A DNA stretch of 64,000 nucleotides from an uncultured Acidobacteriota bacterium (GCA_963813155.1 CAWEYG010000001.1:160001-224000), one strand, 5' to 3'; shown: positions 42,766 to 55,446, numbered from the stretch's first letter. Notes: generated by a model from the letters alone, not told the origin. Made by a program: numbers and translations.

Positions 42766-43080
42766 CTACTTCCAGTGACCGTCGACCCAGTACCAGCCTT
42801 CGCGGGTGTGGCGCCAGTGGCCGGCCACCCAGCGGGCGCCGCGGCGGGGCCTCACGGCCCAGTGGCCTCCGACCCACACGTAAGCGTTGCCGCGCCACTC
42901 GTGGTGCCCGCCGATCCAGACGTGCTCGGGCCCGGGCGCCGTGCCGATGACTTCCACCTCGGCGGGCGGGGGGGCGATCCGCGCGTACACGACCCCGCGC
43001 GGCGGAGGCGGAGGACAGCCGACGAGCAGCGGAAGGACGAGGACGGCGGCAACGAGGAGAGCAGGAATGCGAATCTTCAT
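42766..43080 (-). CDS. WxxGxW-repeat (YXWGXW) lipoprotein
   Basis: SD GGAGG; lipobox LLVGC; repeats WIGGHHEW, WVGGHW, WVAGHW, WVDGHW. Confidence 0.85.
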   Translation of the reverse strand: MKIRIPALLVAAVLVLPLLVGCPPPPPRGVVYARIAPPPAEVEVIGTAPGPEHVWIGGHHEWRGNAYVWVGGHWAVRPRRGARWVAGHWRHTREGWYWVDGHWK

Positions 43081-43131
43081 GGCGAGCTCCCTCCTATCGG
43101 GCAAGGATAGCAATTCCCGGATCGGGCGGAC

Positions 43132-43443
43132 CTATTTCCAGCTGCCGTCCCGGTAGCGCCATCCCCGGTCGGAGTGGTCCCAGCTGCCCTTCTCCCAGTG
43201 GGCGCCGGCGCGGGGCGGCTTCTGCCAGCTCCCCTTCTGCCACGTGTACCCGCCTCCCCGCCAGATGTGATGCCCGCCCACCCAGATGAAGTCGGGGCCC
43301 GGCGCGACGCCGTAGACCTCGACCTCCTCGGCGGGAGGCCCGTAGGACGCGTACCCGTAGGTCGCGCAGCCCGCGAGAAGGGGAAAAGCCGCAGCCGCGG
43401 CGAGCAGAAGAACTTTCTGACGTATCTTCTTCGTAAACATCAC
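43132..43443 (-). CDS. WxxGxW-repeat (YXWGXW) lipoprotein, paralog
   Basis: Lipobox LLAGC; WVGGHHIW, WQKGSW, WEKGSW, YRDGSW. Confidence 0.85.
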   Translation of the reverse strand: MMFTKKIRQKVLLLAAAAAFPLLAGCATYGYASYGPPAEEVEVYGVAPGPDFIWVGGHHIWRGGGYTWQKGSWQKPPRAGAHWEKGSWDHSDRGWRYRDGSWK

Positions 43444-45866: not shown

Positions 45867-47285
45867 TTATAACGTTTCGCGGCGGGCGAGAACGACGAGC
45901 GTCTGGTCGTCGTACTGGGGCGTGGCCCCCGCGAACGCGAGGACCTCTTCCAGGATCCGGCGGGCCGTGTCGGCGACCGGCTCTTCTCCGGCGCTCCCGA
46001 GCACGTCTCGCAGCCGGGGAACGCCGAAGTCCTCGCCGGCTTCGTTTTGCGCTTCCGTGATTCCGTCCGTGTAGACGCAGAGACGGTCGCCCGGGGCGAG
46101 CTGAACGCTCTCCTCCGTCCAGGTCGATTCCCAGAACATCCCCACGGGCCGCCCGGTCGCGCCGAGCATCTCCACGCGGCCCGAAGGGCGCATGAGCAGG
46201 GCAGGGTTGTGCCCCGCCGAAACGTAGGTCATCCGGCCCGAAGCCGTTTCCACGAGGCCGAAGAAAAGCGTCGCAAATTTTCGCGCCCGGGAGAACCGGT
46301 AGAGATGGCGGTGCACGCGCAGGATCAGGTCCGCCGGCGTCCTCGCGTCTTCGATCTGCAGATGAATGGCGGAAGCAAGCGTCGACACGAGGAGCGCCGC
46401 CGGCACTCCTTTTCCCGACACGTCCGCGACGACGAAGGCAAACCGGTCGCCGGAAAGGGGAAAGAAATCGAAATAGTCGCCTCCCACCTGCCGCGTCGAC
46501 AGGCTCTCGGCGGCGACCGCGAAACCGGGAAATTGCGGGATCTCCCGGGGAAGGATCTCCCGCTGGATCGCCGCGGCGAGCTCGAGCTCCCGCTCCAGCC
46601 GCTCCTTCTCCACCGCCTCGCGGTGAAGGCGCGCCGTCTCGACGGCGGTCGCCGCCTGGCTCGCGAACAGCATCAGGAGGCGGGCGTCGGAGAGAGAGAA
46701 ATCCGCGATCGTCCCGTCGCGGGTTTCCTTGTCCGCAACCGCAAGCACCCCGAGCCGCCTTCCCTCGTGCTGGATCGGAACGACGATGCACTTTTCGCAG
46801 TCCGAGAGATAGACGCCGGCCGTCGGGAAAGCCCGGGCGTCGTTGTTGATCGCCCCGTCGGAATCGAGCTCGATCCGAACCGCCGCCTCCTCGCTCAGGA
46901 GCGTCCCCCCGAAGGAGCGCGACAGCGCCGCGCGCTGCCCGTCGAAGAGATGGAGCGATCCGGAACGGGAATTCGTGAGGGAGATCGACCGCAGAAGGAT
47001 TTCATCCGCCAGCCGGTCGAGCTCCAGCCGCCCCCCGACCGAGAGCCCGACATCGTAGAGAGATTCCAGCTCGACGGCGCGCTCCCGAAGCTCGAAGCGC
47101 ACTTCCTTGAGCGACCTCGCGAGGACCCTCGCGGCGACCCAGGCCGCGCCGCCGTCGGACTCGCCGGAATGGGCTGCGCTGTCTTCCACTCGCGCGAGCG
47201 CGAGATCGAGGTTTTCTCCCGGTTCTTCCCCGAGCGCGAGAAGCGCTTCCCGGACGCGGTCCGCGAGCGTGGTCGGCGGGGTCAT
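45867..47285 (-). CDS. GAF + PP2C (SpoIIE/RsbU-like) phosphatase
   Basis: ELELAAAIQREILP, VGGDYFD, ADVSGKG, SAGHNP, YTDGITE, YDDQT; N-terminal GAF. Confidence 0.92.
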   Translation of the reverse strand: MTPPTTLADRVREALLALGEEPGENLDLALARVEDSAAHSGESDGGAAWVAARVLARSLKEVRFELRERAVELESLYDVGLSVGGRLELDRLADEILLRSISLTNSRSGSLHLFDGQRAALSRSFGGTLLSEEAAVRIELDSDGAINNDARAFPTAGVYLSDCEKCIVVPIQHEGRRLGVLAVADKETRDGTIADFSLSDARLLMLFASQAATAVETARLHREAVEKERLERELELAAAIQREILPREIPQFPGFAVAAESLSTRQVGGDYFDFFPLSGDRFAFVVADVSGKGVPAALLVSTLASAIHLQIEDARTPADLILRVHRHLYRFSRARKFATLFFGLVETASGRMTYVSAGHNPALLMRPSGRVEMLGATGRPVGMFWESTWTEESVQLAPGDRLCVYTDGITEAQNEAGEDFGVPRLRDVLGSAGEEPVADTARRILEEVLAFAGATPQYDDQTLVVLARRETL

Positions 47286-47638
47286 CGGGCCGGGGCGAGA
47301 GCCGCGCGCGCTTCCTGTTCGGAACCGTAGATGCCGGCGTACTGGGCGAGGCCCATAATCCGGAACGTCTTGTCGATCGTGGGGGTCAGGTGGCAGAACG
47401 CGAGCGTTCCCTTGCGATCCATCATCTTCTCGAGCACCTCGATGAGAATGGAGATCCCGATCGAGTTGACGATCTTCGTCTTTTCGAGGTTCAGGATGAT
47501 CTGGGAAACGCCGCCTTCGAGCAGTGTCTGGATGCAGCGCTCGATTTCCTCGCCGCCCTCCCGGTTGATGTACCCGTCGGTCCGAAGAACCGCGACCGAT
47601 CCGTCGCGAACGGATTCCACTCTGCAGGACTCGTTCAT
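47282..47638 (-). CDS. STAS-domain anti-anti-sigma (RsbV/SpoIIAA-like)
   Basis: IILNLEKTKIVNSIGISIL with phosphorylatable Ser; KTFRIMGL; ATGA overlaps on both sides. Confidence 0.9.
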   Translation of the reverse strand: MNESCRVESVRDGSVAVLRTDGYINREGGEEIERCIQTLLEGGVSQIILNLEKTKIVNSIGISILIEVLEKMMDRKGTLAFCHLTPTIDKTFRIMGLAQYAGIYGSEQEARAALAPAR

Positions 47639-48060
47639 TTGTACTTCCGCATCACGATGGTGGTCCCCTTCTCGCTCGATCGGATCTCTTCTTCGTCCAT
47701 CAGGCTCTGAATGATCTTCAGGCCCCAGCCCCGCTTGCTGTCCCCGCGGAGCTTCTTCTCCAGCGACGGCGGCTCGACCCGCGAGGGGTCGAATCCCCGG
47801 CCGCGGTCGGAAACCGTCACCTCGAACATCTCCCCGCCGCCGGGGGCCGAGGAAATTCGAAAGAACACGTCCACACGGTGACCTCCCCGGCCGGCGTGCT
47901 CGAAAGCATTGATGCACGCCTCCACGAGCGCGAGCTTCACTTCGTCAATCTTATCCCGAGAGAGGCGCATCGACTCGGCGAGAACCTCGGCGAGCGCGGT
48001 CGCGGCGAGCTCCATGCCCGGCGAGGCCGGGATCGAAAGAGAAACCTCTTTCGCGGTCAT
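47635..48060 (-). CDS. RsbW/SpoIIAB-like anti-sigma Ser kinase
   Basis: LALVEACINAFEHA, VSDRGRGFD, RGWGLKIIQSLMDE. Confidence 0.9.
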   Translation of the reverse strand: MTAKEVSLSIPASPGMELAATALAEVLAESMRLSRDKIDEVKLALVEACINAFEHAGRGGHRVDVFFRISSAPGGGEMFEVTVSDRGRGFDPSRVEPPSLEKKLRGDSKRGWGLKIIQSLMDEEEIRSSEKGTTIVMRKYK

Positions 48061-48070
48061 CCGGACATCC

Positions 48071-48220
48071 TCAGAATTGGAGGAACGCCCGAAGGGCCGT
48101 CCATCCCCACCCCGGGATCGGCAGAACGAGAAGCGCCGCACCGGCGAGGCTCGAGAGGAGAATCGAAAGAGCGCTCGAGAGCGGCGCGCTGAGGGAGAGG
48201 CTTCGGGCTTGGGGGATCAT
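48071..48220 (-). CDS. Unannotated 49-aa hydrophobic small protein
   Basis: MIPQARSLSLSAPLSSALSILLSSLAGAALLVLPIPGWGWTALRAFLQF; fills the space between the sigma54 promoter and rsbW; its TGA overlaps the GAGG SD of rsbW. Confidence 0.55.
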   Translation of the reverse strand: MIPQARSLSLSAPLSSALSILLSSLAGAALLVLPIPGWGWTALRAFLQF

Positions 48221-48237
48221 GGCGAACATCATCCATC

Positions 48238-48253
48238 GCAAGGAGGCTGCCAG
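48238..48253 (-). promoter_or_regulatory. sigma54 -24/-12 promoter
   Basis: CTGGCAGCCTCCTTGC: TGGCA...TTGC with exact GG-N10-GC spacing. Confidence 0.75.
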
Positions 48254-48349
48254 AATTCCGGAACGGCCCGAAAGCCATCAACCCTTTCTTTTGCAAAGAC
48301 TTCAACAATTTTCTTCTCGTTGCAATGACAGCCCGTCTCTGCTGCATTC

Positions 48350-48440
48350 TGTCACATATGGCGATCTTAGCACTTGCGCATTTATATGCATATAATTCAA
48401 AGACAGATGTTTAGCTACAGTATCGTGGCTATATGCCACA
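48350..48440. promoter_or_regulatory. AT-rich candidate upstream activating region (bEBP sites)
   Basis: GTGGC-TATAT-GCCAC 48425-48439, related TGTCACATATGGCGA 48350-48364, perfect palindrome TTATATGCATATAA 48382-48395; ~100-190 bp upstream of the promoter. Confidence 0.55.
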
Positions 48441-48453
48441 GTACTATAAAGTC

Positions 48454-49971
48454 TCATATCTTCTTCCGGTAGAGCGTCCGGCGATCGATCCCGAGGATTC
48501 GCGCCGCACGGCTCTTGTTTCCGTTCGCCAGGCGAAGCACGCGCTGGATGTGGCGCGACTCGAGCTGGCGAAGAGAAACAGCGTCGCCTTCCGCCGGGGA
48601 CGGGGGCGCGCCCTCGTTCGAGCGCGATTCGATCCACTGCAGGTCGCCCCGGTGAATCGCGCCGCCCCGCGCCAGGGCCGCCGCGCCTTCGAGAACGTTT
48701 TCCAACTCCCGCACGTTGCCGCGAAACGAGTGCGAGAGCAGGGCCGCCATCGCCTCGCGGTCCAGCGTGGCCGGCGACTTCCCTTCCCGCGCGGCAAACT
48801 TCGCGAGAAAGTACCGAATGAGCCGGGGCAGGTCCTCCCGGCGGTCCCGGAGCGCGGGCAACGAGACCTCGACGACCCGGAGGCGGTAGTAAAGGTCCTC
48901 CCGAAACTTCTTCTCCGTGATCATTCGGGGAAGGTTCTGATGCGTCGCGGAAAGCACCCGCACGTCGAGCGGGATCCGTTTGCGGCCCCCGACCCGCTCG
49001 CACTCTTTTTCCTGGAGGACACGGAGGATCTTGGCCTGCAGGGCGAGCGGCATGTCCCCGATCTCGTCCAGGAGGATCGTGCCTCCCTGCGCGGTCTCGA
49101 ACTTCCCCGCCCGCGCCTCGACTCCGGTGGCCACTCCCCGCTCGATGCCGAACAGCTCGGCCTCGAGAAGCGACTCGGGAAGCGCCGCGCAATTGATCGC
49201 CACGAACGGGCCCTGCCGCCTCGGGCTCTTTTCGTGAATGAGGCGCGCGACCAGTTCTTTGCCGGTGCCGCTCTCACCGGTGATGAGCACCGAAACGGAC
49301 GACGCCGCGACACGGGAGACGACGTCCAGGACGCGACGCATCGGAACGGACTCGCCGACGAGAAACGAATCGGCGGCCGACCTCCCCGACTCGTCCCGGA
49401 GCCTTCGGTTCTCCTCCTCGAGCCGGTTTCGCTCTCGCTCGAGCCGCGACAGGCGGCGGCGGCGCTCGAGCGCGACGCCGGAGAGCGCGGCGAGCGAGGA
49501 CAGAAACCGCTCGTCCTCGAGCCCGAACGGGAGCGCTCCCCTCCGCGACTCCTTGTCGGCGAGAACGAGCCAGCCGAGACTCCGGTCATCGCCGCCGACC
49601 GCCACGCCGAGCGCGTTCGCGACCGGCGTCTTCAGGAGAACCATCCTGCCCCGGGACAACGGCTGGCGGGCCTGTTCGAGCTCGGCCAGGAAAGGCTCCT
49701 CGAGCAGGATCGAGTCGGAAGTCTTCCTGGGAAACCCGAGAAGCGCCCGCGACGACACCTGCCCGTCCTCCGAGAGCGAAAGGAAGAATCCCCGCGCGGC
49801 GTCCAGGACCGAGACGGCCCGGGACAGCACTTCTTCGGCGAGCTCCCGGTCCGATTCGAGCCCGGTCAGAGTGAGCGCGGCGTCATAAATCGTCTCGAGG
49901 AGGAGCAGCCGGTGCTGGACCTCGAAATCGCGGCCCAGCTCGGCTTTCATTCCTCCCTCGTCGGTCTTCAC
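48454..49971 (-). CDS. GAF-domain sigma54 enhancer-binding protein (Fis-type HTH)
   Basis: GESGTGKE, FVAINCAA, ELFGIERGVATGV, LDEIGDM, FREDLYYRL, GNVRELEN, NKSRAARILGIDRRTLYRK; start GTG 49971 or ATG 49950. Confidence 0.93.
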   Translation of the reverse strand: MKTDEGGMKAELGRDFEVQHRLLLLETIYDAALTLTGLESDRELAEEVLSRAVSVLDAARGFFLSLSEDGQVSSRALLGFPRKTSDSILLEEPFLAELEQARQPLSRGRMVLLKTPVANALGVAVGGDDRSLGWLVLADKESRRGALPFGLEDERFLSSLAALSGVALERRRRLSRLERERNRLEEENRRLRDESGRSAADSFLVGESVPMRRVLDVVSRVAASSVSVLITGESGTGKELVARLIHEKSPRRQGPFVAINCAALPESLLEAELFGIERGVATGVEARAGKFETAQGGTILLDEIGDMPLALQAKILRVLQEKECERVGGRKRIPLDVRVLSATHQNLPRMITEKKFREDLYYRLRVVEVSLPALRDRREDLPRLIRYFLAKFAAREGKSPATLDREAMAALLSHSFRGNVRELENVLEGAAALARGGAIHRGDLQWIESRSNEGAPPSPAEGDAVSLRQLESRHIQRVLRLANGNKSRAARILGIDRRTLYRKKI

Positions 49972-51332
49972 GCCGTTTTCTTCAGCTTCCCGATCTCGGA
50001 TTCCGCCGCGATCGTGTCGAGGTCGCGGGGATTGAATTTGCGATTGACGGCGAGGGTCTTTTCCGCCCCTTCGAAATCGCCCAGGCGAGCCTGAGCCTCC
50101 GCGAGCAGGGCGCGGTAGCGGATGGCGCTCGCCTGTTTGTCCAGGTCGCCCGCCTCGCCCGGAGAAGGCAGCGCGCTCTCCCAGAGCCGGATGGCGTCGC
50201 GGAATCGACGGTCGCGAAACGCGATTCGCCCGCGAGTCACGCGCAGCTGGCGCTCGATTTCCGCCTGCATGACCGGATCCGGGTCTTTCCAGGACACCGA
50301 GTCGAGAACGGCGTCGGCTTCTTTCGTCCGGCCCTCGTCGCTCAACAGCACGGCTTCGAAGATCTGGTCGGCCCCGCCGAGTTTCGGGGGAATTTTCGCG
50401 CTCCGCATCGTCTCGATCGCCTCGCGCGCCCGGTCGAAGTCCCTTTCGCGCAGAGAGAGGAAGAAGAGCTTCTGCGCCACGACGAATTTTTCGATCGGCA
50501 TCTGGGCGAGCCGAAACGAAAGGTCGAAGTTCGCGCGGGCGAGAGCGAAATCCCCGCGCCTCTCCTGGGCGACTCCGAGGCGGTAGAGGTAGCCGTAGAA
50601 ATTCGGCTTCAATTCGTGGGCCTTCTGAAAATCGCGGATCGCGGCTTCGTAATCGCCATGGGCGGTCTCGACCTCGCCGAGCGTCTCCAGCGGATCTGCC
50701 GAGTCCGGCGCGATGAACGCGTAGCGCTTCAGGTCGGCGAGGGCCTCGGGAATGTTTCCGCGCGTCGCCTCGAGGTATCCGAGGTAGTTGTACGCCTGAG
50801 CGCAGTTCGGATCGTGCGCCAGCCGCTCGCGAAACAGGGCGGCCGCGTCTTCGGTCCGGTTCAGGCGCATCGCGTCTTCGGCCAGGCACTGATAGCCGAC
50901 TTCGTCCTGATAGTCCTGTTTCAGGATCCGGGCGATCCGGGTGGCTTCGCCGTTGCGGTGGTACACCCAGGCTCGCGCGAGATCCAGCACGAGACGCTCC
51001 CGTCGCGTCACGCGGCCGCGCAGCCGGTTCGCGGCTTCCAGGACTTCCTGGGCTCGCGACGTGTTCCCGTAGCCTTCGTAGAACTCGATCAATCCGACCC
51101 TCACCATGGCCATGACGAATTTCGGATCGTCGGAAAGCGCCTTTTCGTAGTGCCGCCGGGCGTCGGCGAAGTACATCCGATCGTAGTCTTCGTTTCCCTC
51201 GGTGTACTCGCGGTAAGCGAGGTCCGACGACGTCGTCACCTGCCGCCGCGGAAGAAGGAAGAGGGCCGCCGAGACGGCCGCCACCGCGAGGCTCGCGGCC
51301 GCGATTCCCCAGCTCTTGTGCGTGCTCGCCAT
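49968..51332 (-). CDS. Membrane-anchored TPR protein
   Basis: N-terminal TM; TPR-like repeats (ARRHYEKALSDDP, AYNYLGY, AIRDFQKAHELKP). Confidence 0.82.
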   Translation of the reverse strand: MASTHKSWGIAAASLAVAAVSAALFLLPRRQVTTSSDLAYREYTEGNEDYDRMYFADARRHYEKALSDDPKFVMAMVRVGLIEFYEGYGNTSRAQEVLEAANRLRGRVTRRERLVLDLARAWVYHRNGEATRIARILKQDYQDEVGYQCLAEDAMRLNRTEDAAALFRERLAHDPNCAQAYNYLGYLEATRGNIPEALADLKRYAFIAPDSADPLETLGEVETAHGDYEAAIRDFQKAHELKPNFYGYLYRLGVAQERRGDFALARANFDLSFRLAQMPIEKFVVAQKLFFLSLRERDFDRAREAIETMRSAKIPPKLGGADQIFEAVLLSDEGRTKEADAVLDSVSWKDPDPVMQAEIERQLRVTRGRIAFRDRRFRDAIRLWESALPSPGEAGDLDKQASAIRYRALLAEAQARLGDFEGAEKTLAVNRKFNPRDLDTIAAESEIGKLKKTA

Positions 51333-51336
51333 CCTG

Positions 51337-53859
51337 TCATCCTTTCGAAATGCTCATCAGCATGAAGGTCATGTCGTCGTATTGCTCGGCATCCGCCACG
51401 TGCGCGCGCACGTCCGCAAGGATACCGCGGGCCGTCTCCTCCAGGTTCGGGGAGGAGTGCTTCGCGAAGGACTGCATCAGGCGATCCTCCCCGTACGGAT
51501 TCATCTCCGCGTCCATGGCCTCGGTAAACCCGTCCGTGTAGAAGAAGAGGACGTCCCCGTGCCTCAGGTAGACCTCGCGCGTGTCGTAGGGAACCTCCCG
51601 AAGCGCGCCCAGGGGAAGGCGAAATTCGGGCGGCTCGAGCTGCCGGGGGCCGCCGTCTCCCGTTCGCAGCAGAAACGGCAGGGGTTGCCCGCCGATCGCG
51701 TACTTGAGCGTCAGCGATTCGATGTCGAGCAGGAAGTATCCAAGCGCGACGAACATCTTCCTCTTGATGTCGTAGATGCGCCGGTTCGACTCGCGGAACA
51801 GGGCCCCGGGGTCCTCGGTGTTGCGCGATCCCGCGTAGATGATCTCCCGCGAGGCGACCATGAGCAGCGAGGCCGGGATCGACTTCCCCGACACGTCGCC
51901 CATGACGAATCCGAGGCGCGCGCCGTTCTGAAACGGGAAAAAATCGTAGAAATCGCCCCCGACGACCTTCGCCGGCAGGCTCCCTCCCGAGAACCTCACT
52001 CCCGGGATCTTCGGAAACTCCTTGGGAAAGAGGCTCGTCTGGATGTCCCGGGCGATTTCCAGGTCGCGCCGGAATTCCGCCTGCTGGGTCATCTCGTCGT
52101 GGAGCGAGGCCGTCTCGATCGCCGTCGCCGCGTGATTGGCCAGAGTCTCCAGCACGAGAAAATCGTCCGGGTCGAAGGCTTCCTCGGAGAGCTTGCCTTT
52201 CAGGGCGAAAAAGCCCATCAGGCGATCGCGATAGATGATCGGAACGAGGAGCGTCACTCCCCGGCGCGCGATCGAGTCGAGAAACGCGACGCTGTCGGGC
52301 TCTCCCCAGCACCCCGATTTCAGCTCCGGGATGCCGCGGGGTCTCGCCGAACCCTGAAGAAAACGCGAGACGAGCGAACGGGCCGGCACTCTCTGGTCCC
52401 GGTCCTCCCTTCCGAAAAAATGCCCGTCGCGGTCGCGAAGAAAGAGCTCGACGCCGGATAGCCGCAGAAGCGAAAGGATCCGAGCGGTCAGGTAATCCGA
52501 GACGCGCGCGAGGTCGAGCTCGCCGGCGACCGCTTCCGAGATTTCGAGCATCGCTTTCTGGTAGTCGTACTTCTCGCGGAAGAAAAGCCGGTCGATGGGA
52601 TTCTGCAGCCTGCGCCGGAGGAACTCGAACGTCGGGATGACGACGAGGAACACCCCGAAGAGAAAAAGCCGGGACGAAGCCAGGCGCGAATTCGCGAACA
52701 GCGCGTTGGCGGCGGAAAGGGCGCCGGCGTAGAAAGCGAAAAGAATTGCGGTCGAAAACGTGTAGAGCAGGGACTTCCGGACGATCACGCGAACGTTGAG
52801 AATCTGGAATCGGACGATCGCGTACGCAAAAGTCAGCGGGATCAGGACCATCGGGGCGATCCCGTAGAACACGTAGGCGTCGTTGTGCAGCGCCGTCGGA
52901 AACACGATCCCGAAGAGGACGAACGGCGCGGTGCCGAGAATCGTTCCGACGAAGACCTGCATCACCTGGCGCCGCTCGCGCGGATTCTCGAGCGTGAAAG
53001 CGGAATGGGCGAGGGCCGCGAGGCCGAGGACCAGGTAGTCGCCGAGAAGCACCCAGGAGGCCAGCGGCGCTCCGGAGAGCAGTTTCACCGGACGCCCTTC
53101 CATCTGGCGCTGAACGTCGAAGATGAACACGACGGGAGGAATCGCGTAAATCAGGAAGTACAGGAGCGGACTTCCGTTCAGGAAGTCCTGGAGCCTTCGC
53201 GCGATCGAGCCGGCGCGGTCCTCCTCCGCGAATCGAAACTGGTTCTGTCGCGGGAAAATCAGGAAGAAGTGGAGAAACGCCGCGGGCAGGAGAAACAGGG
53301 AGATCGTGCCCGTGTTCTGGACGAAGAGGTCGACCCACCAGTAGGAGGCGGGCCTCAGCCGGCAAACGAAGAACAGGAGGAAGAGAACGCAAACGACGAA
53401 GAAGACCCGGACGGCTCCGTCGTCCGGCCGTTTCCAGAACACGAACAGCCCGATCGCGAAAAAGAGAAACCCGATGATCGCTTCGTAGAAGTAGGTGGGG
53501 TCCGCGAGGATACGTCCCGTCAGCGCGACGTCCACGACGAACGGCGCGTTGCGTCCGCGTTCCACCATGTAGGAGACCCGGGAGCCGATCCGGGACTTCA
53601 ACAGCTCCCGTCTCGCGTCGGCCGGCCCGCGCACCATCCGGTGGTTGATGCCGAGAATCCGGTCTCCGGCGAGGATGCCCGCCTTCTCGGCGCCCGAACC
53701 CCGAAGGACCTCGCGAACCTCGACGGCATCCTGACCGTACGGGTTCGGGACGACGCCGTCGGCGGGCCGCCGAACGAACATGTCGGCGAGCGAGCCCAGG
53801 GCGATTGCCAAACCCACGAAGCCGAAGATCAGGAGTGCTCGCCGGGACCCAAAGTTCAT
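51337..53859 (-). CDS. PDZ + multi-TM + GAF + PP2C (SpoIIE-like) membrane sensor phosphatase
   Basis: GSGAEKAGILAGDRILGIN (PDZ); many TMs incl. PLTFAYAIVR; IDRLFFREKYDY; VGGDFYD, GDVSGK, YTDGFTE, YDDMT. Confidence 0.9.
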   Translation of the reverse strand: MNFGSRRALLIFGFVGLAIALGSLADMFVRRPADGVVPNPYGQDAVEVREVLRGSGAEKAGILAGDRILGINHRMVRGPADARRELLKSRIGSRVSYMVERGRNAPFVVDVALTGRILADPTYFYEAIIGFLFFAIGLFVFWKRPDDGAVRVFFVVCVLFLLFFVCRLRPASYWWVDLFVQNTGTISLFLLPAAFLHFFLIFPRQNQFRFAEEDRAGSIARRLQDFLNGSPLLYFLIYAIPPVVFIFDVQRQMEGRPVKLLSGAPLASWVLLGDYLVLGLAALAHSAFTLENPRERRQVMQVFVGTILGTAPFVLFGIVFPTALHNDAYVFYGIAPMVLIPLTFAYAIVRFQILNVRVIVRKSLLYTFSTAILFAFYAGALSAANALFANSRLASSRLFLFGVFLVVIPTFEFLRRRLQNPIDRLFFREKYDYQKAMLEISEAVAGELDLARVSDYLTARILSLLRLSGVELFLRDRDGHFFGREDRDQRVPARSLVSRFLQGSARPRGIPELKSGCWGEPDSVAFLDSIARRGVTLLVPIIYRDRLMGFFALKGKLSEEAFDPDDFLVLETLANHAATAIETASLHDEMTQQAEFRRDLEIARDIQTSLFPKEFPKIPGVRFSGGSLPAKVVGGDFYDFFPFQNGARLGFVMGDVSGKSIPASLLMVASREIIYAGSRNTEDPGALFRESNRRIYDIKRKMFVALGYFLLDIESLTLKYAIGGQPLPFLLRTGDGGPRQLEPPEFRLPLGALREVPYDTREVYLRHGDVLFFYTDGFTEAMDAEMNPYGEDRLMQSFAKHSSPNLEETARGILADVRAHVADAEQYDDMTFMLMSISKG

Positions 53860-53950
53860 CAAACTGAATGAATTATACGGATCGTCCGAGAAATGGTTCA
53901 AACCCTTGTGGGTGCCGGAGGGTGCGGATAGAGTCCCGGGCGGGAGACCG

Positions 53951-54572
53951 ATGCCGCTCATCACGTTCGAAGGAATCGAAGGCTCCGGAAAGTCGACGCA
54001 GTCCCGGCGCGCGGCGTCGCTCTTTCGAAGCCGGGCCGCGGAAGTGCTGCTGGAGAGAGAGCCCGGAGGAACGCGGATCGGCTCCGCGATCCGGGAAATC
54101 CTTCTCGATCCGGCGAACCGTCACCTCGATCCGATCGCGGAGTTGATGCTCCTGGAAGCCGACCGCCGCCAGCACGTCGCCGAGACTCTCGCTCCCGCCC
54201 TCGCCCGGGGAGCGCTCGTTCTCTGCGACCGCTTCAGCGACGCGACGTTCGCGTACCAGGGAGGAGGCCGCGGAATCGATCCCGCCCTGCTTTCCCGAAT
54301 CGACGGGTGGAGCGTCGGAAATCTCCGCCCGGACCGGACTCTCCTTTTCGACTGCCCCGCGGAGGTGGGTCTCGCTCGCGCCCGGGAGCGCGACGGCGGC
54401 CGGAGCGGATCGGTTCGAAGCCGAGGAGGAGGATTTCCACCGGCGGGTGCGGGATGCCTACCTCGAAATCGCGCGGCGGGAACCCCTCCGGGTCCGCGTC
54501 CTGGATTCGACCCGGTCTCCCGAAGAAGTCTTCGGGGACGTGGAGCGCGAGATCTCCGGACTGCTCGGCTGA
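53951..54572 (+). CDS. tmk: Thymidylate kinase; apparent frameshift ~54405
   Basis: ITFEGIEGSGKST, REPGGT, VLCDRF, AYQG; shifted C-terminus FHRRVRDAYL. Confidence 0.92.
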
Positions 54573-54573
54573 C

Positions 54574-55446
54574 GTGCGCACCCTCCTGATCTCCGGCGAT
54601 TCTCCCGCCCTGCTGCGCCAGGAGGCTCTCGCGACCGCAAGACGCCTTCTCTGCCCCGAACATCGGGAAGACTCCTGCTCCGTCTGCCGGCGCATCGCGG
54701 ACGGTTCGCATCCGGACTTTCTTCGGGTGGGCCCCGACGGCCCGCAGATCAAGGTCGAAGACGTGCGCGATGCCGTTCGATTTGCGTCGGGGCGCCCCTA
54801 CGAAGGCCCCGCGCGGATGATCTGGATCGACGGGGCCGACGCGCTCCGGGACGCCGGCGCGAACGCCCTCTTGAAATCGCTCGAAGAACCGGGGGAGTCG
54901 GTCCAGTGGCTGCTCACGGCGACGGCGCCCGAATCGATCCTTGCGACGATCCGTTCCCGCTGCGTGCACCGCCGGCTCTCGCCCCGAAGACCTTCGGATC
55001 TCGCGGCGGCTTTCGAAGCGGACGGCCTCGCGCCGTCCGACGCGCGCGACGCGGTCGCCTTCGGGCTCGAACCGGGGGAGCCCGCCGACCTCGACGCGGC
55101 GAGGGAGCGCCGCCGCCTCGTCCTGGGCGCTCTCGGGAACGGGTCCGTGACCGCGCTGCTCTCGCTCGCGGCCGCGTCCGCGGAAGACGATTTCGCCCCC
55201 GGCCTCGTCGCCTCGGTCCTCCGGGACGCGGCCATTCTCGCCTCGGGGGCCTCTTCCGACCGGCTTCGCCACGTCGGCGCCGCCTCCGAGCTCGCCCGAG
55301 TCGCGGCGCTCTACCGTCCCGAAGCGCTCCAGGAAGCCGCTCGGGAGGCGGACGCCCTTCCGGACGCCTTCCAGCGCAGCCGCCAGAAGAGGCTGGGCTT
55401 CGAAAAATTGTTTCTCAGGCTGAGCGAAGGAAAGGCCGAGAAATAA
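54574..55446 (+). CDS. holB: DNA polymerase III delta-prime subunit (compact)
   Basis: CSVCRRI..HPDF, IKVEDVR, ANALLKSLEEP, TIRSRC; follows tmk. Confidence 0.85.
   Translation: MRTLLISGDSPALLRQEALATARRLLCPEHREDSCSVCRRIADGSHPDFLRVGPDGPQIKVEDVRDAVRFASGRPYEGPARMIWIDGADALRDAGANALLKSLEEPGESVQWLLTATAPESILATIRSRCVHRRLSPRRPSDLAAAFEADGLAPSDARDAVAFGLEPGEPADLDAARERRRLVLGALGNGSVTALLSLAAASAEDDFAPGLVASVLRDAAILASGASSDRLRHVGAASELARVAALYRPEALQEAAREADALPDAFQRSRQKRLGFEKLFLRLSEGKAEK

Follow-up and report, generated by a model that had tools for sequence, protein, structure and literature searches.

What does a partner switch control when no sigma factor is encoded beside it? The outputs of sigma-less switches such as those of SypA and BtrV are an open question, and a cassette in the genome of an uncultured Acidobacteriota bacterium offers a candidate, namely a sigma-54 activator that carries the GAF module of the cassette's own phosphatase. 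The window analysed here is the whole stretch of 64,000 nucleotides in which this cassette lies.

Gene content and conservation of the cassette

Seven co-oriented genes had been proposed in the first-pass annotation. All seven are real and lie on the minus strand, and six of them were confirmed by Pfam. The three upstream genes encode a membrane phosphatase with the order TM1-PDZ-nine TM-GAF-PP2C (51337–53859; Pfam PDZ, GAF and SpoIIE/PP2C), a signal-anchored TPR protein (49968–51332; one TM segment and TPR) and a sigma-54 activator composed of GAF, AAA+ and Fis HTH domains (48454–49950; GAF, Sigma54_activat and HTH_8). They lie behind a sigma-70-like promoter (53872–53901, minus strand, 10/12 matches), the −10-like hexamer of which was recovered by regular expression in 19 of 34 relatives, with a TAACAT variant seen by eye in the remaining 15. 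The downstream genes encode a membrane microprotein, an RsbW/SpoIIAB-fold serine kinase (47635–48060; HATPase_c_2), a STAS protein (47282–47638; STAS) and a soluble GAF-PP2C phosphatase (45867–47285; GAF and SpoIIE), and are preceded by a sigma-54 promoter and a pair of enhancer-like sites. An Rfam search of the window returned no match.

Gene order is conserved in the regions of 35 of 40 relatives, and the seven-gene form, for which a wider synteny search had been suggested, is limited to the order of the source genome. The core found across the class Thermoanaerobaculia, in which the system is near-universal, consists of activator, promoter, microprotein, kinase, STAS and GAF-PP2C. Among class genomes, the PDZ phosphatase and its TPR partner frequently lie elsewhere or were not found (18 of the 28 genomes with the core yielded no orthologue of the PDZ phosphatase), so the envelope input proposed earlier for this pair is optional and the two proteins are accessory parts. 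Homologue listings for the sensor and the STAS protein gave close relatives only, among the matches listed. The presence of the downstream amidohydrolase and pcm genes varies between loci, and no conserved candidate target gene was found at the locus.

A sigma-54 promoter, the single apparent target of the activator

The correctly spaced −24/−12 promoter noted in the first pass was located at 48238–48252 on the minus strand, with a predicted start near 48226. This match is unique in the window; 8 of 100 shuffles also gave one, so a single site is weak by itself. The prediction is made strong by its conservation, since the site is found upstream of the kinase in 110/110 activator–kinase intergenic regions (92 distinct), compared with 0/92 when the opposite strand was read and 1.9% for shuffled sequences. 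Motif searches resolved what had been described as an AT-rich palindromic region into a distal (48424–48440) and a proximal (48340–48356) palindromic enhancer-like site, each of 17 bp and unstranded, and a conserved IHF-like site (48278–48303, minus strand) between these and the promoter. The last resembles the IHF consensus, with a partial match in the source genome. The palindromic sites are candidate binding sites of the cassette's own activator. Promoter, enhancer and microprotein remain with the switch where the activator gene is elsewhere (G376, L216), and also despite inserted genes. The earlier suggestion that the activator transcribes the switch genes is supported by the conserved sigma-54 promoter and enhancer-like sites before them, and one RpoN is encoded in the source genome.

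A scan of the source genome found both enhancer-like sites together at one promoter only, that of the cassette, and the activator therefore appears to drive its own operon alone in this genome. In the search for a wider regulon, a strict pattern gave six matches in 41 genomes, every one at a cassette, while matches to a loose pattern stood at control level; among 20 loose-pattern candidates picked by eye, only the cassette promoter of G021 reached the cassette score range. A regulon of one promoter is a weak output, a point that was counted against the mechanism proposed below.

Switch proteins and the search for a partner sigma factor

The catalytic residues of the switch are intact. In the kinase E47, N51, D85, G87, G89, G111 and G113 are invariant (66/66) and the N, G1 and G2 boxes are preserved, and the STAS phospho-acceptor noted earlier corresponds to Ser59, which is aligned with the SpoIIAA site and is invariant in 51/51. 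The catalytic Asp motifs reported for both phosphatases are indeed present and conserved among orthologues: the PP2C motifs of the large phosphatase are kept in 69, 69, 68 and 68 of 69 sequences, and in the small phosphatase DVSG/DVAG is found in 105/115, [TS]DG in 115/115 and DDxT in 113/115, with regular-expression matches to GGD in 94/115. By sequence, the closest solved structures are RsbW, SpoIIAB and SpoIIAA; scores of the cassette proteins against equivalog models all fall far below the cut-offs.

Residues linked with sigma factor control are replaced. The canonical Arg20/23 of the kinase is mostly Thr, Ser or Ala (Arg in 2/66), and in the STAS protein Glu21 has become Tyr and Asp23 has become Asn, each in 51/51, so that the kinase Arg23–STAS Asp23 pair of the Bacillus systems is lost from both partners. 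In Bacillus, STAS Glu21 displaces the sigma factor, as described in the accessible text of PMC7340262. Consistent with the initial reading of a locus that is devoid of a local sigma factor, no sigma-70 match occurs in any cassette-bearing region, and a SigB/F-type sigma factor, sought in the homologous loci, was not found in cassette regions; the one match in 120 regions lies beside a lone activator paralogue of the unpublished genome G008. Genome-wide, no SigB/F/G-type sigma exceeded the TIGR02980 cut-off in 61 class genomes (1/14 above it in the control; the source genome is 90.8% complete). The source genome encodes one region-3 sigma factor, RpoD, and two further sigma-less kinase/STAS pairs.

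A GAF module common to the activator and the soluble phosphatase

In the activator and in the GAF-PP2C phosphatase, the GAF/coiled-coil modules are closely related. In 37/42 class genomes (36/41 when G008 is left out), a search with the activator GAF gave a second match on its own contig at a distance of 3–6 kb, and in the fetched regions this neighbour proved to be the GAF-PP2C. In the source genome a joint GAF profile, which is partly circular because it contains a 97% relative, scored 216 and 189 bits for the two domains and at most 58 for other GAF stretches. In one tree the two are split from other GAFs with support of 94/94, in another with 80/86. That the activator GAF was copied from that of the phosphatase is not established, as AU tests reject none of three groupings (p 0.25–0.64). 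When the joint alignment was used as a profile against 1.84 billion representatives, the 150 matches listed were long multi-GAF proteins and thus uninformative, and fold and PDB searches returned generic GAFs.

The two families have 27 conserved positions in common. On the two outer helices and the DKExR loop, conservation averages 0.62–0.76, but 0.32–0.41 in the lid, which forms the ligand pocket of GAF domains; in both GAFs no other part is less conserved than the lid, and the residues common to them lie outside it. The K-D pair and Phe of the common loop are general GAF features. Mutual-information analysis of coevolution between GAF, kinase and STAS gave noise, as did the kinase–STAS positive control (effective depth ∼30). 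The idea of feedback from the switch to its own activator gains indirect support from the module that the activator and the soluble phosphatase have in common.

The microprotein and the membrane proteins

The small ORF predicted behind the promoter (48071–48220, minus strand) was found to encode a conserved 49-residue, two-helix membrane microprotein under coding selection, for which no family was found, NCBIfam and Atlas giving no match. It is the first gene downstream of the sigma-54 promoter, forms a hydrophobic hairpin that has no conserved Trp in its profile, and ends in a hydrophobic-X-hydrophobic tripeptide, a pattern typical of PDZ ligands. The membrane phosphatase has ten predicted TM segments with the PDZ domain between TM1 and TM2. 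The TPR protein, which travels with it, is more positive on the N side of its TM segment than on the C side in 72/79 sequences, and the TPR probably lies outside the cytoplasm, to judge from the protein sequence.

Proposed mechanism and alternatives

We tentatively propose, at somewhat less than an even chance, that the cassette forms a partner switch that regulates itself, with a sigma-54 activator standing in for the sigma factor. In such a circuit the kinase would phosphorylate Ser59 of the STAS protein and both phosphatases would reverse this. The switch protein thereby freed, more likely the kinase (as RsbT does on RsbU) and otherwise the STAS protein, may dock on the helical face common to both GAF modules and so set the state of the activator as well as that of the soluble phosphatase. 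The switch would be flipped by a membrane signal that enters via the PDZ phosphatase or, in genomes that lack its gene, by some other input, upon which the activator would turn on its one known promoter. The microprotein, as the sole non-switch product, may be an effector or a feedback regulator of a membrane sensor. That the switch acts directly on the activator is the step that we infer, on the hint given by their common GAF. Against the proposal stands the kinase-STAS-GAF-PP2C trio, which occurs without any activator in 11/11 regions fetched from other classes, so that by gene content the older output of the switch is distinct from this activator. If direct control is true, enhancer-binding proteins would join the effectors of partner switching and a GAF domain could serve as the docking site of a switch protein; the parts of the cassette are small soluble domains. 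Its near-universal presence in Thermoanaerobaculia, together with an uncharacterised microprotein, suggests that the circuit is basic to regulation in a class that has received little study.

Should the link between switch and activator fail, the cassette would be an ordinary syp-like arrangement with one-way wiring, in which the activator does no more than transcribe the switch. An unlinked target would then be controlled by whether the STAS protein is phosphorylated, or by action of the GAF-PP2C on a second STAS protein. We regard this as nearly as probable as the proposed mechanism. The activator-less trio of other classes favours it, with a further kinase/STAS pair behind the trio in two cases (L208, L209); so do the two additional pairs of the source genome and the strong conservation of the STAS protein, which has 19 invariant columns. 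SypG, SypA and SypE work in this manner, the SypA target being given as not known in the available portions of PMC4517449 and PMC8256260. The common GAF would then reflect a common small-molecule signal or plain ancestry; however, its poorly conserved lid fits badly with a common ligand, and the locus holds no conserved target candidate, amidohydrolase and pcm coming and going. Much less probable is a role of the kinase as a genuine anti-sigma factor that acts on RpoD or on a group-2 or ECF sigma factor encoded elsewhere. The source genome does encode, besides RpoD, 12 further region-2 matches above cut-off, and RsbW of Chlamydia can form a complex with the housekeeping sigma-66, as stated in the accessible part of PMC11619594, but the replacement of STAS Glu21 and of kinase Arg20/23 argues against this, as does the presence of only one region-3 sigma factor in 18/41 genomes of the source order.

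Compatible with the proposed self-regulating switch, and in our judgement improbable, is a peptide-signal loop in which the microprotein or a C-terminal piece of it is the ligand of the PDZ/ten-TM sensor, resulting in quorum-sensing-like autoinduction or in feedback by a small membrane protein, presumably in the manner of MgrB. The position of the gene directly behind the promoter and the C-terminal pattern of its product are in keeping with such a loop. The ten TM segments with the PDZ domain between TM1 and TM2 match the predicted layout of ComP (PMC9620489, in its accessible text), a likeness of layout only. In contrast, lineages that yielded no orthologue of the membrane phosphatase still have the microprotein with its C-terminal pattern, although a kinase-like PDZ-TM paralogue is widespread, and no processing, modifying or export gene was found at the locus. 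The full combination, a GAF-docking partner switch on a sigma-54 activator with the microprotein signalling back through the ComP-like phosphatase, is unlikely; if true, it would be a peptide-sensing circuit of anti-sigma parts wired to sigma-54 and kept across a bacterial class.

Relation to known systems

The architecture was new to the first-pass annotation; sigma-less partner switches with sigma-54 promoters have already been described in the Vibrio syp system. The closest known systems are Vibrio fischeri SypG/SypA/SypE and the logic of RsbT–RsbU. In the former, according to the available portions of PMC4517449 and PMC8256260, a sigma-54 activator likewise transcribes a locus encoding a single-domain STAS protein that is under a serine kinase/phosphatase, and an anti-sigma target is not known there. 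SypG, however, is a response regulator under a phosphorelay that drives an 18-gene polysaccharide locus, whereas the cassette activator has a GAF domain in common with the phosphatase instead of a receiver domain; kinase and phosphatases are separate genes rather than fused as in SypE; and the cassette has no polysaccharide genes, one promoter being the only target found. In B. subtilis RsbT–RsbU, which serves as a model for the mechanism proposed here, a protein of the kinase fold docks on a dimeric N-terminal domain and its coiled-coil linker, and this input domain has been reused on other outputs: with RsbT it also controls a diguanylate cyclase, and it occurs on histidine kinases (PMC12143880, in its accessible text). 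In the cassette a GAF takes the place of the RsbU N-terminal domain as the common module, a stressosome is absent, and docking is proposed by analogy.

The Bacillus RsbU-RsbV-RsbW-SigB and SpoIIE-SpoIIAA-SpoIIAB-SigF systems have the same three folds, with phospho-serine and catalytic motifs kept in the cassette, and differ in that no SigB/F/G-type sigma was found and in the replaced Arg20/23, Glu21 and Asp23. Pseudomonas aeruginosa SiaABCD and Bordetella BtrU/V/W are also partner switches with a non-sigma output, which is either biofilm formation together with a diguanylate cyclase or type III secretion; a sigma-54 activator with a phosphatase-common domain is not mentioned in the accessible portions of 10.1101/674879 and PMC8256260. 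Bacillus ComP–ComX is similar in layout only, with a ten-TM sensor, an extracellular PDZ domain after TM1 and a small peptide gene (accessible text of PMC9620489), whereas the cassette sensor has a PP2C output rather than a histidine kinase, no ComQ-like transferase gene is present, and the microprotein hairpin has no conserved Trp. A literature search, the coverage of which left out most subscription papers, listed no paper that deals with the cassette, nor one that describes binding of a GAF activator by a STAS or RsbW-like protein.

A point overlooked in the first pass is the sigma-54-contact loop of the activator, which is GVATGV instead of GAFTGA in 105/106 orthologues, with Walker A and Walker B each kept in 105/106. 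That a loop of this form is active is a prediction, a point counted against the mechanism proposed above. GVATGV activators as general companions of partner switches were considered and rejected. The survey comprised 140 loci, of which four were dropped (motif not in an ORF), 13 were cassette-type and one carried a truncated cassette. Among the 122 that were left, the 36 that were at least 10 kb long were scored, and any switch gene was found in 2/36 and at least two in 1/36, compared with a switch gene beside 1/14 canonical activators of the source genome, all with home-made profiles of limited sensitivity. The same loop is found in DVUA0100 of the Desulfovibrio vulgaris plasmid pDV, which is no closer to the cassette activator than to the other activators of the source genome. 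A HAMP-PP2C gene lies two genes downstream of DVUA0100, a STAS protein and a kinase are encoded in the cluster, and no sigma factor is annotated there. DVUA0100 differs in having no GAF domain and in its predicted targets, which are type III secretion operons, and in the accessible text of PMC4641369 its GVATGV loop is predicted to be active in Desulfovibrio.

Conservation and distribution of the cassette

The cassette is real and class-wide in the Thermoanaerobaculia (Acidobacteriota). Pfam and motif search confirm the first-pass annotation for the -24/-12 site (48238-48252) and for six large genes with their domains, all on the (-) strand: a PDZ/10-TM/GAF/PP2C membrane phosphatase (51337-53859), a TPR protein (49968-51332), a GAF-AAA+-Fis sigma-54 activator (48454-49950), an RsbW-like kinase (47635-48060), a STAS protein (47282-47638) and a soluble GAF-PP2C phosphatase (45867-47285). 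Relatives conserve the catalytic motifs of the two phosphatases, the boxes of the kinase and Ser59 of the STAS protein. The expected synteny within the order UBA5066 is borne out by the full six-gene order in 35 of 40 regions around the best activator matches in relatives, the others being three that stop at contig edges and two lone activator paralogues; two of the 40 come from the unpublished genome G008, on which alone no claim rests. Among 80 loci found through the kinase, a set overlapping these 40, 58 are complete and 22 are sub-runs of the identical gene order. In the 110 loci where activator and kinase occur together, representing 92 distinct spacers, a -24/-12 motif always precedes the kinase, as against 0/92 on the opposite strand and 1.9% of shuffles.

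Lone second activator copies, with neither switch genes nor promoter nearby, occur at L045 (genome G036) and L069 (G008). At nine loci (L057, L060, L062, L101, L110, L128, L136, L140 and L150), opposite-strand genes of ~750 aa are inserted between activator and enhancers, some of these loci carrying a second large gene, and the enhancer-promoter unit remains with the kinase. The inserted genes presumably resemble isocitrate lyase and malate synthase.

In class genomes outside the order, activator, kinase, STAS and GAF-PP2C are kept together in 18 of 20 regions, 16 of them with the -24/-12 motif, and the activator stands alone in two; in one of these genomes, G376, the rest of the unit, including enhancer, promoter and microprotein, sits elsewhere. 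The genes for the membrane phosphatase and the TPR protein are accessory: both searches covered 28 genomes outside the order with the activator GAF, of which 18 yielded no orthologue of the phosphatase sensor region, including three single-contig genomes that are 98-99% complete. Where an orthologue is present outside the order (17 genomes), the best TPR match directly follows it in 10, and in six others the orthologue lies directly before the activator, with no TPR gene; TPR protein and PDZ phosphatase thus behave as a pair. The TPR/PDZ pairing proposed initially therefore gains support, but its necessity does not.

Beyond the class, 12 of 359 phylum genomes match the activator GAF at E below 1e-10. 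In the 11 regions fetched, the match is a GAF-PP2C downstream of a kinase and a STAS protein belonging to these same families, and no activator, sigma match or enhancer-promoter set was found, so the switch is more widespread than its sigma-54 wiring. Three of these regions carry a different, inserted membrane phosphatase and two continue into a second kinase/STAS pair. The genome of the window has two further kinase/STAS pairs (L152:7236-10390 and L153:7070-7836), one adjoining a receiver-domain phosphatase, with no sigma factor within the 14-16 kb fetched; they are possible candidate downstream modules.

Promoter region and microprotein

The palindromic region noticed in the first-pass annotation resolves into two conserved copies of a 17-bp enhancer-like palindrome, which motif search of the 92 spacers placed at about -106 and -190 relative to the promoter (48340-48356 and 48424-48440). 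An additional element at about -52 (48278-48303) is one that we liken to an IHF site. Linkage and a conserved recognition helix suggest that the neighbouring activator binds the palindromes. In four family f3 genomes (L397-L400), a conserved 57-59-aa ORF follows a sigma-54 motif with a different upstream repeat; it has no match among the called genes of the genome of the window.

Downstream of the promoter, 109 of 110 loci carry an ORF of 40-110 codons, a count that required a hydrophobic-X-F/L end, the unfiltered ORF list showing the same family; outside the order this microprotein (here 49 aa, 48071-48220) was found in 15 of 18 regions by script and in the other three by eye. Codon differences fall mostly at third positions (2626, 2175 and 6163 at positions one, two and three), and synonymous changes predominate (4481 versus 1660, over 586 non-independent pairs). 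A segment of TM strength occurs in 98 of 104 microproteins, and two helices are predicted by a single-sequence model (pLDDT 77). The gene is single-copy in this genome, and the protein has no match in NCBIfam or the Atlas.

Proposed control of the activator

The link of most interest is a putative action of the switch on the activator, suggested by a shared GAF. Structure prediction gives a GAF flanked by two long helices for the first 190 residues of the activator (pLDDT 94), which share 33% identity with the soluble phosphatase's GAF. With the activator GAF as query, 37 of 42 class genomes have the other match on the same contig, at a distance of 3-6 kb. Conserved residues common to both GAFs lie in the outer helices and a DKExR loop, the lid being conserved least. 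On the simplest reading, one partner would control both activator and GAF-PP2C, for which there is precedent in RsbT, described in the available text of PMC12143880 as acting on the RsbU N-terminal domain, which is reused on other effectors. We tentatively propose that the switch may control the activator directly, a reading to which we give a less than even chance. Trees of the two GAFs did not settle the direction of copying, and coevolution of GAF, kinase and STAS gave noise, the kinase-STAS positive control included.

Our literature searches did not find the cassette in print. The closest described arrangement, going by the available text of PMC4517449 and PMC8256260, is Vibrio SypG/SypA/SypE, and a one-way wiring of this kind with an unlinked target is almost as likely as direct control. 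The two-enhancer score singles out the cassette promoter (29.7, next 17.4) among 2687 relaxed sigma-54 sites of the genome, and searches of relatives' genomes found no second target promoter; weak targets may have escaped detection, since a single promoter family supplied the enhancer matrix and genome completeness is 90.8%. That the microprotein is a ligand or feedback regulator of a PDZ sensor is unlikely, though compatible with direct control of the activator: the membrane phosphatase has 10 predicted TM segments with the PDZ after TM1, the layout predicted for ComP in the accessible part of PMC9620489, whereas the microprotein persists in lineages with no detected membrane phosphatase.

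A sigma factor encoded elsewhere is a quite improbable target. In line with the first-pass annotation, which saw none at the locus, no canonical SigB/F partner was found, none of 61 class genomes having a SigB/F/G model over cut-off. This genome has 13 region-2 matches over cut-off, one region-3 match (RpoD) and one RpoN; a second region-3 match occurs in 22 of 41 genomes of the order, and both of those inspected score best to RpoD/RpoS-type models. In Bacillus, according to the portion of PMC7340262 available, STAS Glu21 displaces the sigma factor and Arg23-Asp23 forms a kinase-STAS contact; the Glu21 position is Tyr in 51 of 51 sequences, and the contact is replaced on both sides in the cassette proteins. 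The cassette works like a partner switch, yet falls outside the SigB/SigF systems.

In 105 of 106 activator orthologues the sigma-54-contact loop reads GVATGV. This loop is shared by DVUA0100 of Desulfovibrio, predicted in the available text of PMC4641369 to be active, and the DVUA0100 cluster likewise contains PP2C, STAS and kinase genes. The term anti-sigma is absent from the searched text of that paper on the plasmid cluster. This type III secretion cluster (L255:21571-25840, L256:3793-4560) encodes the GVATGV activator, a HAMP-PP2C, a STAS protein and a kinase, with no sigma factor annotated. A general pairing of GVATGV activators with partner switches was rejected: of 36 further long loci with such an activator, just two contained any switch gene.

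Neighbouring and related loci

Elsewhere in the genome (L151:8421-12539, contig C1), a histidine kinase gene lies ahead of one for a receiver-type sigma-54 activator, and a -24/-12 motif is present 31 nt upstream. The sensor at the kinase's N-terminus is a relative of the membrane phosphatase's sensor (25% identity), and relatives of similar size are found across the class. Divergent from the cassette at 53780-55446 (+) are a thymidylate kinase gene, whose frame seems shifted near 54400, possibly through assembly error, and a gene that we take to be DNA polymerase III delta'-like, both fixed neighbours in the order. At 42766-43443 (-) lies a tandem pair of small lipoprotein-like ORFs with Trp-Gly-rich repeats.
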